A stretch of 59,760 nt of DNA, from the IMG/VR virus record IMGVR_UViG_3300036792_000097, positions 1-59,760 of that record; one strand, 5' to 3'. Below are positions 3,001 to 6,000 of this stretch, piece by piece. The DNA comes from a virus (lineage: Duplodnaviria > Caudoviricetes). Positions within the stretch are counted from its first letter, which is position 1. The number at the start of each line of letters is the position of its first letter. Made by a program: the position numbers.

Positions 3001-6000
3001 AGATCGACGCCAAGCTCGCCAAGATCGCGGAAGCCGAACGCGGCCGGGTCGCGCTGCCCGCCGTGGTGTTCCGCAGCGGTGAAGTTCGCGCCATCAGCCT
3101 CACCGACGCGTGGGCCGTCGTTTCGATGTACCTGAAGCACCTGTTCCTGGACTGCGAGAACTCGGGCTACCCGATCGGGCACAAGTTCTACGAGTTGCGG
3201 ACGATTCAGCTCGGCGGCGAGGAAGCGGCTGTGGTCTTTGACGCCGCAGACGCTGAACAGCGCCAGGTGGCGTCGCTCGCGCTGGCCATGGCGGAGAAGA
3301 TCACGGCGCACAGCGCGGCGGCCGACGCCATCCCGGTGGTGCACGCGGGCCTTATCGGCTGGGACGAGATCTGGGCCAAGATGCACGATTCGGTGCTCTA
3401 CCTCAAGCTCACCGATCCCAAGCTTTCGGGTTCTGAGGCCAACAAGCTCAAGGAAGCCGCAAGCGACATGCTGCGCGGGTACGCCGTGAGCCCCCAGGCC
3501 GAAAAGGACAAGAACGCGCTTTTCAAGACCATGGGCTGCCTGATGGAAACCGACAACACGACGCCGCCGGAGAAAAGCGGCTGGATGCAGGTTTCCAAGA
3601 ACGCGGTCGTCATGGTGATTTACGCCGGAAGCGACGTTCTGGACCTGGCCGCCGTAATGCGCGTCCTCCCCCCTTTGCCCGTGGCCGATTCCGTCCTGGA
3701 GCGCGAAAGGTGGTTTGAGGCCAAATGCGCCCGAGTCGGCTATGACGGGTTCAAGCTCGATCCGGTCCAGATCAGCGGAAAGCTCACCGAGCACGAAACT
3801 GGCTTTATCAAGACCCAGCAGAATGCCGCCGTTTTGTCGGACGGGCTCATAACCAACCCGAAGTCGCCAGAAGTCATAAAAGTGCTCACAAGCCGGTACC
3901 CGCATATCGACTTCAAGGTCAAGGACAAGCAGACCAAGCAGTACAAGGACTCAGCGTCCAAGGCGGTCCTGGAGCGCGTCAAGGTCCAGGTGAAGGAAAC
4001 CGACCCGCTGCTGTGGCACCTCGCTGACCAGATCCTGGAGCACCGGCACCACTCGACCACCGCCAGCCTGCTGCTGAGGCCGCTGGAGAACCTGTGCCTG
4101 CACGGCGACGGCCGGATGCGCCCCACTGTGTACACGATCAACGCCGACACCGGCCGGTGCTCGTGCGTCCGTCCCAACGGCCAGCAGTTCAGCCGTCAGG
4201 GCGGCATCAGGGCGTGCGTGTGCGCCGACGACGGCTACGTGATGTGCAACGCCGACTTCGAGGGCTGCGAGATCCGGGTGGGCGCGGCGCTGTCCGGCGA
4301 CCGTGGGCTGTACGAGGCCGAGGTGTCGTCTCTGTGCTACCTCTGCAACGAGGACCCCTGCGGCTGCGGCGGCAAGCACATCGGCCTGCACTGGAAGACG
4401 GCGCATACCGCATTCGGCAAGGCGGCCACCAAGGAAAACCGCTACGGGGCCAAGCGCGGCACGTTCACCCGGCTGTTCGGCGGCGGGGCGGAGACGGCTG
4501 CGCAGCAGGTTGGCTGCCCGGTGCGGGACATGCAGGCGCTGTTCGAGGCGTTCAACGCAGTCGCGCCGGTCTACACCGCCTGGGACAACCAGCTCAAGGC
4601 TGCGTTCGAGGCCGGCACGCTGGTGTGGCGTGACTACACGACCGGCGAGAACCACTTCGAGCCGCTGGACGGCAAGCGCCGTGGAATCTACCGGACCTAC
4701 TCCGGCCGCCAGATCTACATCAACGCCCCGCACGCCTTCGGCAATTACGCCATCCAGGGCACCGCACGGGAGCTGCTGCTGGACGGGGTAATCCGCTGGA
4801 GCCAGACCCGGTGGGGCCACCTGCCGCTGCTCCCGATTCACGACGAGCTGCTGACATGGGTTAGGGACGCTGACTTCGAGGAGGCGACCGTCACGCTCCA
4901 GGCGTGCATGGAAACCCGCGTGCTGTCCTCGCCTGGCTTCGAAGTTCTCGTAGGCGCTGACCCCGAGCTGAAGCGCTACACGTACTGGCCGGACTCAAGC
5001 TGAGGTATGCTGGCGTCATGGAACCGTAGGTACATCGCCTCTACACCGTGACCAGGGAAGACCTCCCTGCGGCGGTGCAGGCTGTTCAGTCGGCGCACGC
5101 CGCCGTGGAGTACGCGGCCCGCTACCCGGCCGTCGCCGGGTGCACGCTGGTCATGCTGACCGTTCCGGGCGAAGAAGCCCTGCGTCACCACTCGGCCATC
5201 CTCGGGTTGCACGGCATCGACGTTATCCAGTTCCGCGAACCGGACCTGGGGAATGAACTGACCGCCATCGCGGTTAGCCATCCTGGTGCCCTCCGCCGGC
5301 TGGCGAAGCTCCCCCTCCTGTTGCGAGAGGGGGTGATGTGATGGAAGAGAACATGTCATGGCTCCAGGCGAAGTGCGCTGCCCAGCGGCAGGCGAATGAC
5401 GCCCTGCACTCCACTGTGGTCCGCCAGCGCTTCGTGCTGCGGATCGCGGGTGAGCTGGGTCATCTCCCGACCCGCGAGGAGTTCATCAAGTACCGCGACG
5501 CGGAAAACGACCAGGCGCGCAAGCGCATTGGCGATCCCGAGTAACATCTACCTGGGCACGGCGACCTGAAGCCATGGGCCGGGTTGATCACCGGCCGCCG
5601 TGCCCCCTATGTCCCCAGGACCCTTGAGGGAGGGGTGGCCGCCCCTAAAGCGGCTTGCTGCGGGTTCGAAACCCGTTGGGGACTCTGTGTGGTATCTTCA
5701 CACCTAGAGCGACCGACAGGGAGGCCGACGTGAGGTACACGCGCTACGAGATCCAGGCGTACACCCAGGTGGGCTGGCTGGACGCCGCCATGGACAAGGC
5801 ATCGTATGAGTGGATTCCGCTTCCCCGGCTCATGCTCTCGGACCTGGCGCAGCGAGAGCGCGTTGAGGCCCTGCGCGAGGACAACGGCCAGTTCCGGGAC
5901 CTCGGAGACGCCGAGTCGGTCTACCGCCTGGTCAAGCGCGAGCGGCCCGGTGCCGTGCTGCGCCTGCGGCGGATCGTCACGCAAGAGGTGTACACGACGC

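Follow-up and report, generated by a model that had tools for sequence, protein, structure and literature searches.

We describe here a small genetic module in which a stop codon at the beginning of a gene is likely to gate translation, with passage set by a suppressor tRNA that the same phage encodes. It lies in the virus record IMGVR_UViG_3300036792_000097, whose single contig of 59,760 bp (genome G000, G+C content 62.8%), an entire genome, is the window of our analysis. Directly after the stop codon of the DNA polymerase gene, a gene for a protein with the fold of Pth2 hydrolases carries a TAG as its fourth codon, and further downstream on the same strand there is a tRNA gene with a CUA anticodon. 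The gated module is real and probably functional. A previous inspection of the DNA (hereafter, the sequence-only reading) had pointed to a Pth2-like gene with an early UAG, a coupled open reading frame (ORF) and a CUA tRNA, and all these elements occupy the positions that it had given, as follows.

5006-5011, plus strand: -10-like hexamer TATGCT (pattern TANNNT), 6 nt before the ATG at 5018
5018-5026, plus strand: three-codon leader ATG GAA CCG (M-E-P), from reading of the sequence
5027-5029, plus strand: in-frame TAG at codon 4, the putative gate, with a homologous TAG in 28 class A and 7 class B loci (classes defined below)
5030-5341, plus strand: predicted Pth2-fold hydrolase-like domain of 103 aa plus its TGA stop (AlphaFold2, Foldseek and family profile)
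5338-5544, plus strand: ORF of 67 or 68 aa, from GTG 5338 or ATG 5341 to the TAA ending at 5544, overlapping the TGA of the hydrolase
5554-5605, plus strand: strong hairpin separating the small ORF from the tRNA, with a 10-bp outer stem (GGGCACGGCG/CGCCGUGCCC)
5611-5685, plus strand: tRNA with anticodon CUA (5645-5647) in a 7-nt loop (ARAGORN)

An in-frame TAG precedes a Pth2-like domain

The gene (5018-5341) has a frame that is open from the TAG to the TGA at 5339-5341. After the TAG at 5027 it continues with GTA CAT CGC CTC TAC ACC GTG ACC AGG GAA GAC CTC, and an ORF called with genetic code table 11 begins only at the GTG of this series (position 5048). In the AlphaFold2 model, residues 3-9 after the TAG (RLYTVTR) form strand beta1 and GTG 5048 encodes residue 7, so that a start there would delete four of the seven residues of a core strand that all 53 aligned family members have conserved, as have solved Pth2 structures from residue 1. 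Moreover, three close relatives lack this GTG: L005 reads ATG GAA TCG TAG GCG CGT CTC TAC ACC ATA, with the leader kept and ATA in the place of GTG, and both L004 and L009 have GTC at this position. These relatives therefore could not use the table-11 start. An ordinary gene whose start is GTG 5048 or some non-canonical codon past the TAG, with the TAG merely closing an upstream frame and the tRNA clustering being unrelated, agrees with the fact that table 11 yields exactly this ORF and that gene callers mostly chose the equivalent start in close homologues, truncating the genes at the TAG. Nevertheless, it would sacrifice more than half of beta1 and rely on a start codon that is missing in L004, L005 and L009, and we consider it unlikely.

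The product of the gated gene is predicted with high confidence to have the Pth2 alpha/beta fold. The AlphaFold2 model of the domain (predicted local distance difference test score, pLDDT, of 95.3) superposes on the Pth2/Bit1 structures 1q7s, 3erj, 1wn2 and 2zv3 with template modelling (TM) scores of 0.72-0.78, and the 12 Foldseek matches in the PDB at E <= 0.001 are, without exception, of the Pth2/Bit1 type (TM 0.67-0.78). At the sequence level, the window protein alone matches no Pfam family at E <= 1 and has a weak match to phrog_3668 of the PHROGs database, annotated as 'hydrolase' (E = 5e-5), which starts at residue 6, namely upstream of the GTG. A word-indexed search found 13 metagenomic relatives with 58-73% identity, and scans of viral and metagenome contigs gathered 83 family loci (L numbers in this text). 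The profile made from 53 aligned family sequences identifies Pth2 among solved chains (best match 2zv3_A, E = 1.9e-10), with profile position 2 corresponding to chain residue 1. Of these 53 sequences, 40 hit Pfam PTH2 at E <= 0.1 (best E = 1.6e-11). The same family profile detects 2,814 cluster representatives at E <= 1e-10. A scan of genome contigs with the family alignment returned 27 pattern matches, none of which was confirmed, and thus no prophage copy by that route.

Residues Q20, H23, R69, E70, P71, L73 and T78 are invariant in the alignment. The family shares with Pth2 (PF01981; 2zv3, 1wn2, 3erj and the human Bit1 1q7s) the motifs R-x-D-L...Q-x-x-H-A and ...L-T-A-[IV]-A. In contrast with Pth2, its G-K-G-K loop is shortened and has no lysine, and an invariant R-E-P-D-L takes the place of R-D-A-G; compared with 2zv3, the Asp becomes an invariant Glu and the Thr is kept. 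The Lys of the GKGK loop, an Asp and a Thr are the putative catalytic residues of Sulfolobus Pth2.

Two variants of this architecture occur in the family. Long forms of 314-319 aa (L023, L033, L034, L039, L050 and L075) consist of M-T-TAG (M-T-F-T-TAG in L050), an extension of ~20-35 residues, the Pth2-like domain and ~200 uncharacterised residues. In L047/L048 (2924-3000), L061 (2926-3001) and L077 (2929-3001), the hydrolase frame starts right where a tRNA gene ends; no ATG or GTG intervenes before the first strand, and what looks like an open frame upstream is this tRNA.

The stop codon recurs across the family and is almost always TAG

In each locus we translated the reading frame leading up to the conserved N-terminus and classified the result. 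The 83 loci and the window make 84 sequences, which become 74 distinct loci once 6 exact duplicates and 4 sequences with a frame open to the contig end are removed. Class A comprises loci whose conserved region is closely preceded by an in-frame stop, with a start codon located 1-9 codons ahead of this stop and no ATG, GTG or TTG from the stop to the first strand; class B loci have a leader of this kind plus a possible alternative start, and class C loci have a plain start.

Class A: 30 loci; the stop is TAG in 28, TAA in 2 and TGA in 0
Class B: 8 loci; the stop is TAG in 7 and TAA in 1
Class C: 36 loci; the nearest upstream in-frame stop is TGA in 20, TAG in 9 and TAA in 7

The preference for TAG in class A (28/30, against 9/36 in class C) is highly significant (Fisher p = 1e-8). 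The short leaders show no conservation. The most frequent is M-T, and the others include MN, MA, MF, MR, MW, ML, MES, MEP, MKNT, MAPT, MPHT, MADS, MKDP, MPYR and METNHY. Of the 39 TAG leaders listed, 37 have a purine right after the TAG (G 22, A 15, C 2, T 0), and a purine after UAG favours amber suppression. The sequence-only reading had proposed to look in relatives for an early TAG together with a neighbouring CUA tRNA; both do recur together, in many unrelated phages. What we find in this family is the combination that characterizes a suppressor-gated gene, namely a conserved in-frame stop between the start codon and the domain, accompanied by a matching tRNA.

The family is also present in cultured mycobacteriophages, with 206 Mycobacterium phage records matching it, mostly under the annotation 'peptidyl tRNA hydrolase'. 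In phage Alice, the annotated GTG start of gp150 is located immediately 3' of an in-frame ATG TAG, and the gene found 250 nt downstream, gene 151, bears the annotation 'tRNA-suppressor (cta)'. Phage Bxz1 has the same organization, and phage Myrna has GTG TAG GTG and a CUA tRNA (ARAGORN). This Myrna tRNA (1963-2034 of L085, EU826466.1) carries a CUA anticodon according to ARAGORN, as opposed to its GenBank label of tRNA-Ser recognising UCG.

The short leaders bring to mind a second explanation, a regulatory mini-ORF that operates without any read-through: slow termination or peptidyl-tRNA drop-off at the leader would control ribosome loading, and near-cognate reinitiation would sense the capacity of Pth or of release factor 1 (RF1), in analogy to the lambda bar minigenes and host Pth. 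In its favour, leaders of 1-6 codons belong to the minigene length class, the codon after the TAG is often of the NTN type (GTA, GTG, GTT, ATT, ATC, ATA), and a product that is itself Pth-like would give an attractive feedback logic. However, the post-TAG codons also include GGC, GGT, GCG and AAC, which are not start-like, the RNA structure around the TAG is no different from that of shuffled sequences (z = 0.04), and this mechanism needs neither an in-frame stop nor a match between stop and anticodon, yet both hold. We find it improbable.

Comparison with other soil samples bears on whether the TAG and the tRNA are authentic. Over positions 4950-5750, we compared the window with contigs of four soil-metagenome runs (X1 to X4; X1 may be the source sample). 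X2 and X3, from other samples and other studies, cover 5001-5172 and have an identical TAG at 5027-5029, with differences from the window at 5016 (T>G in both), 4995-4998 (X2) and 5130-5134 (X3). X4 contains a variant of the tRNA with nine changes, among which A5620G and T5636C preserve the 10-25 pair of the D stem and C5614T and C5616T convert C-G pairs to U-G pairs; the anticodon loop CCCUAAA is unchanged. Since the TAG is kept in contigs that differ nearby and the tRNA shows a compensatory change, neither of them is an error, and the objection foreseen in the original prediction, a TAG created by misreading, is contradicted by the diverged contigs of two further soil samples. A decaying gene or an assembly error, with the TAG as a recent nonsense mutation or sequencing artefact, might be suspected because the window comes from a soil metagenome assembly and its tRNA has an unusual C33. 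It is nonetheless very hard to believe given that the contigs which share the TAG come from three samples (one maybe the source) and three studies and differ at other positions, that the same design appears in 30 of the 74 distinct loci and that the model of the downstream domain is intact (pLDDT 95.3).

Some of these contigs also differ in the surroundings of the gene. A related strain in X3 carries, starting exactly at 5001 (variant region 4994-5001), 82 other letters that separate the module from the polymerase gene, and in the place of the hairpin (5553-5609) it has 20 other letters, shorter and themselves hairpin-forming.

Start signals at the leader ATG and other parts of the module

The hexamer ahead of the leader ATG also belongs to a recurrent pattern. 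TANNNT is found 6-8 nt ahead of the leader start in 10 of the 13 gated loci with G+C >= 0.60, the window included, or in 9 of 12 when Alice and Bxz1, which are close kin, are counted once. By comparison, this geometry is present at 1.2% of all ATG and GTG triplets of the window and at 9 of 104 gene starts of a crude, codon-usage-based gene call (binomial p <= 5e-9). In L014 and three mycobacteriophages, TTGACA lies 17-19 nt upstream of TANNNT. Leaderless mRNAs with such a -10 spacing are common in actinobacteria, where they initiate only at the 5'-terminal start codon, and the placement of TATGCT suggests a leaderless mRNA beginning at the AUG of the leader. In low-GC loci, purine-rich tracts resembling Shine-Dalgarno (SD) sequences (AGGAG, GGAGG, AAAGGAG) can be recognized by eye ~4-8 nt before the leader ATG.

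The small ORF downstream of the hydrolase is less widespread, being present after the gene in only 4 of 83 loci, all high-GC (L004, L005, L009 and L076). Its 67-aa product has no match in PHROGs and no look-alike in the ESM Atlas at >= 0.9, and its sole match in Pfam is a weak one to HNH_repeat (E = 0.0055), below the cut-off. Complex prediction for the hydrolase domain and the 67-aa protein scored 0.00, which gives no answer and is evidence neither for nor against binding. A metagenomic protein of 153 aa (P0012) has the hydrolase domain fused to the small downstream ORF.

The fold of 5545-5730, a region that includes the strong hairpin and the tRNA, gives z = -1.55 overall. A consensus scan of 4700-6200 for promoters and terminators, restricted to sigma-70-type sites, found 0 and 0. 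The separate promoter that the sequence-only reading had assigned to the tRNA thus gains no support; the hexamers that it probably had in mind would make a -10 box coincide with the tRNA's first base.

The CUA tRNA and its match with the stop codon

The tRNA of the window is non-canonical in having C33 instead of U33 (loop CCCUAAA), G8 instead of U8 and no encoded CCA. Aligned with those of L004, L076 and L079, it shares with them a cloverleaf supported by compensatory changes in 10 of 22 pairs, so that this non-canonical tRNA is kept under structural constraint. None of the four tRNAs has U8: the 8/14 pair (5618 and 5624 in the window) is A8-U14 in L076 and L079, the usual U8-A14 swapped, G8-C14 in L004 and G8-U14 in the window. 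The discriminator base also differs among the four (U, A, G, U), which, together with the non-conserved leaders, suggests that any amino acid suffices at the gate.

Around the family genes, CUA tRNAs are encoded on the same strand as the gene, usually 130-230 nt upstream or 300-800 nt downstream. They occur in the DNA around 15 of the 28 class A TAG loci, 5 of the 7 class B TAG loci and 13 of the 36 plain-start loci. The two class A loci gated by TAA are siblings, L018 and L043. L043 has a UUA tRNA, a single case in which stop codon and anticodon have changed in step, and the contig of L018 stops before that position.

A further type of unusual tRNA was detected beside plain-start members only. 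These tRNAs, which ARAGORN labels 'Ile(aat)', have anticodon loops of ~9 nt, often N-G/C-U-A-A-U-G-A-C, and accompany 12 of 36 plain-start loci as against 0 of 38 gated loci (p = 6e-5). According to ARAGORN, they are found in the following loci.

L002, L016, L020, L022, L032, L037, L047, L053, L057, L061, L067, L077: tRNA with a ~9-nt anticodon loop

The proximity of both CUA tRNAs and 9-nt-loop tRNAs to plain-start genes suggests a direct relation of the enzyme to unusual decoding tRNAs, beyond its being regulated by one of them.

Observations that weigh against the proposed gate

Several observations speak against a gate that depends on the suppressor tRNA, beginning with the tRNA itself. 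Its score against Rfam RF00005 is 23.8 bits, so that the gathering score of 29 is not reached, and C33 is exclusive to the window tRNA, whereas those of L004, L076 and L079 have U33. CUA tRNAs are not significantly commoner with gating (20 of 35 TAG loci of classes A and B versus 13 of 36 plain-start loci; p = 0.098): the tRNA is tied to the gene family as such, and gating alone does not explain their adjacency. Among the 28 TAG-gated class A loci, 13 have no CUA tRNA in the flanks examined. Many of these are short contigs, and in several gated loci, namely L005 and L009 (where the small ORF stops 80-125 nt before the end), L010, L012, L052 and the TAA-gated L018, the contig finishes where relatives carry the tRNA. 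No CUA tRNA exists within the more than 1.3 kb available on each side of L017 and L038, and in L023 and L033 the tRNA in the usual position has another anticodon loop. A working suppressor would also override the 21 TAG stops of the phage's own genes, a cost, and there is no RNA run among the public runs that contain the stretch.

Initiation after the TAG has to be considered too. The TAG of cluster C mycobacteriophages is immediately followed by a GTG that has an SD-like GAAGG or GGAGG 7 nt before it; gating is therefore optional in these phages. Their -10 spacing would equally fit a leaderless AUG-UAG start. In the window, a 14-codon ORF on the plus strand runs from ATG 5007 to the TGA at 5049-5051 and overlaps GTG 5048 by GTGA. 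On transcripts coming from the polymerase gene, translation of this ORF could couple to initiation of a truncated hydrolase at GTG 5048.

This overlap, as well as the location of the family in tRNA arrays and beside CUA tRNAs even with a plain start (the 13 of 36 loci mentioned above), would suit an ordinary gene. On the other hand, an ordinary gene leaves unexplained the distribution of stops in class A, the TAA/UUA match and the start signals at the leader ATG, three features that the suppressor-dependent gate accounts for. The translational switch advanced in the sequence-only reading thus receives comparative support from these features, to the exclusion of its separately promoted tRNA.

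A standard-code, actinophage-like phage

The module belongs to a phage that we could characterize through PHROG matches. These include a protease and a major head protein in addition to the following genes.

122-2404, minus strand: primase
2649-5003: DNA polymerase, with stop TGA at 5001-5003
38908-40590, plus strand: large terminase
44021-45835: portal

The terminase is ~30% identical to those of Rhodococcus, Mycobacterium, Gordonia and Arthrobacter phages, a search of a phage collection for near-identical DNA gave no match to the window, and the public runs that contain the stretch are soil metagenomes. For these reasons we consider the carrier of the module an uncultured, actinophage-like tailed phage, whose small genome is of siphovirus size.

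The phage uses the standard code. The 104 genes of the crude gene call end with TGA (60), TAA (23) or TAG (21), and the TAG-ending ones include the terminase, whose PHROG match extends to residue 554 of 560. We also looked for TAGs beyond which coding sequence continues in the same frame and inspected 13 contexts, of which only the one at 5027 combines a leader, a TAG and no later start. A TAG-recoded phage (code 15) was accordingly rejected, with TAG terminating 21 of 104 genes, terminase included, and a single gene being gated.

Seven of the 21 TAG-terminated ORFs are in frame with the next gene over at least 100 codons, compared with 6 of the 83 that end with TGA or TAA (Fisher p = 0.004), a comparison based on crude gene calls and biased by the frequent overlap of TGA stops with the next start. 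One is the terminase, whose TAG is followed, in frame, by a gene for 342 aa at 40603-41631 (38908-41631 for the whole stretch, plus strand). The others are listed here.

14060-14242, minus strand: TAG-terminated ORF in frame with the next gene
15420-15659, minus strand: the same
28221-28418, minus strand: the same
28911-29060, minus strand: the same
36253-36465, plus strand: the same
51550-51723, plus strand: the same

The genome contains a tRNA-Met as well (33511-33585, plus strand; 64.6 bits; ARAGORN and Rfam), whose first base, C, stands opposite A72. A C1 facing A72 as a mismatch is a mark of bacterial initiator tRNAs, and the phage may thus encode its own initiator tRNA.

Proposed mechanism

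In the gate that we consider likely, a transcript, probably leaderless and beginning at A5018, would be translated from the AUG at 5018, and the ribosome would reach the UAG at codon 4. If RF1 wins there, a tripeptide would be released and no enzyme made. If, instead, the UAG is decoded by the tRNA(CUA), whose gene lies 270 nt further on in the same strand, the product would be a Pth2-fold hydrolase of 107 residues, after which translational coupling would yield the overlapping 67-aa protein. As UAG decoding would compete with RF1 termination, enzyme output would follow the activity of the suppressor tRNA relative to RF1. We infer the read-through at codon 4 from the sequence comparisons above.

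As to the function of the enzyme, our guess is that its substrate would be an ester on the 3' end of a tRNA. It might clear the peptidyl-tRNAs made when stops are overridden, a feed-forward dosing, or it might act on the acyl or peptidyl form of its partner tRNA, a negative feedback; both options are conjectural. One can also imagine an autoregulatory module in which the enzyme would strip its partner tRNA, or tRNAs stranded by overridden stops, of an acyl or peptidyl group, need the partner for its own synthesis and hold UAG read-through at a set low level, licensing the read-through of TAG-ended genes, with other members of the family serving other recoding tRNAs (UUA, 9-nt-loop). We put this extended scheme forward as a speculation that is more probably wrong than right by a good distance.

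Relation to known systems

Suppressor tRNAs of stop-codon-recoded phages were reportedly studied by Borges et al. in 2022, and the phage tRNA(CUA) of recoded phages has been proposed to act as a timing switch. In code 15 phages (crAss-like, Lak), TAG is read as Gln via suppressor tRNAs (PMC9523058). As in them, a phage tRNA(CUA) would be needed here for a phage gene with an in-frame TAG; unlike in them, TAG remains an ordinary stop, and one gene, from one enzyme family, would be gated 1-9 codons after its start. CUA tRNAs have also been reported in Xanthomonas phage XacN1, which has two, and in Stenotrophomonas phage Summit, and, according to both articles, no target gene for them could be found (PMC5852040, PMC9022506). 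These phages resemble ours in having a CUA tRNA and the standard code, and differ from it in that we propose a specific conserved target. We searched XacN1 for a gated copy and found none; its match to the family lies inside a larger ORF with no tRNA nearby. The closest parallel in logic is the autoregulation of RF2 (prfB), which relies on an early in-frame UGA and a +1 frameshift. In both cases an early in-frame stop makes the output of a translation factor depend on stop recognition, but here the bypass would be made by a dedicated tRNA and would sense the suppressor against RF1, the product is a hydrolase, and the feedback is putative.

PTH2 is known in jumbo phages (Iyer et al. 2021, PMC7824862), and the terms 'suppressor' and 'stop codon' occur 0 times in that article. 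Searches of the main text of published articles found no phage suppressor tRNA linked to a stop-gated Pth2-like gene, in agreement with the sequence-only reading, which knew of no description of this linkage.

That reading had further imagined that a tag-less RNA similar to transfer-messenger RNA (tmRNA) would supply substrate to the hydrolase. The RNA is real according to Rfam, as a tRNA-like domain only.

33802-33882, plus strand: tRNA-like domain of tmRNA, 81 nt (Rfam 53.7 bits, gathering score 47)

It has the G3:U70 pair and an ACCA end, it has no tag frame, 18 nt replace 310 positions of the model, and ARAGORN makes no tmRNA call. The tmRNA of mycobacteriophage DS6A, which likewise has only the tRNA-like domain, was suggested by Hudson, Lau and Williams in 2014 (PMC4131195) to inhibit tmRNA, perhaps through titration of SmpB. 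The RNA at 33802-33882 resembles that of DS6A in being little more than a tRNA-like domain, and the role suggested in DS6A, inhibition of tmRNA, differs from the supply of hydrolase substrate. Lying 28 kb from the module, this RNA is tied to the hydrolase by nothing beyond a shared theme.

Implications

As far as the literature searched is concerned, a suppressor-dependent gate on one gene in a standard-code phage is unpublished. It has a practical side for annotation, as gene callers truncate such genes at the TAG, and for synthetic biology, for which it would offer natural orthogonal pairs of suppressor tRNA and gate. The module can be tested in culture, the family being present in the cluster C phages Alice, Bxz1 and Myrna, which grow on Mycobacterium smegmatis mc2 155. 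For the biology of phages, a conserved single-gene target at an early codon beside the tRNA would explain the persistence of orphan suppressor tRNAs, and a stop codon accompanied by its own decoder would be a new kind of natural gene switch.

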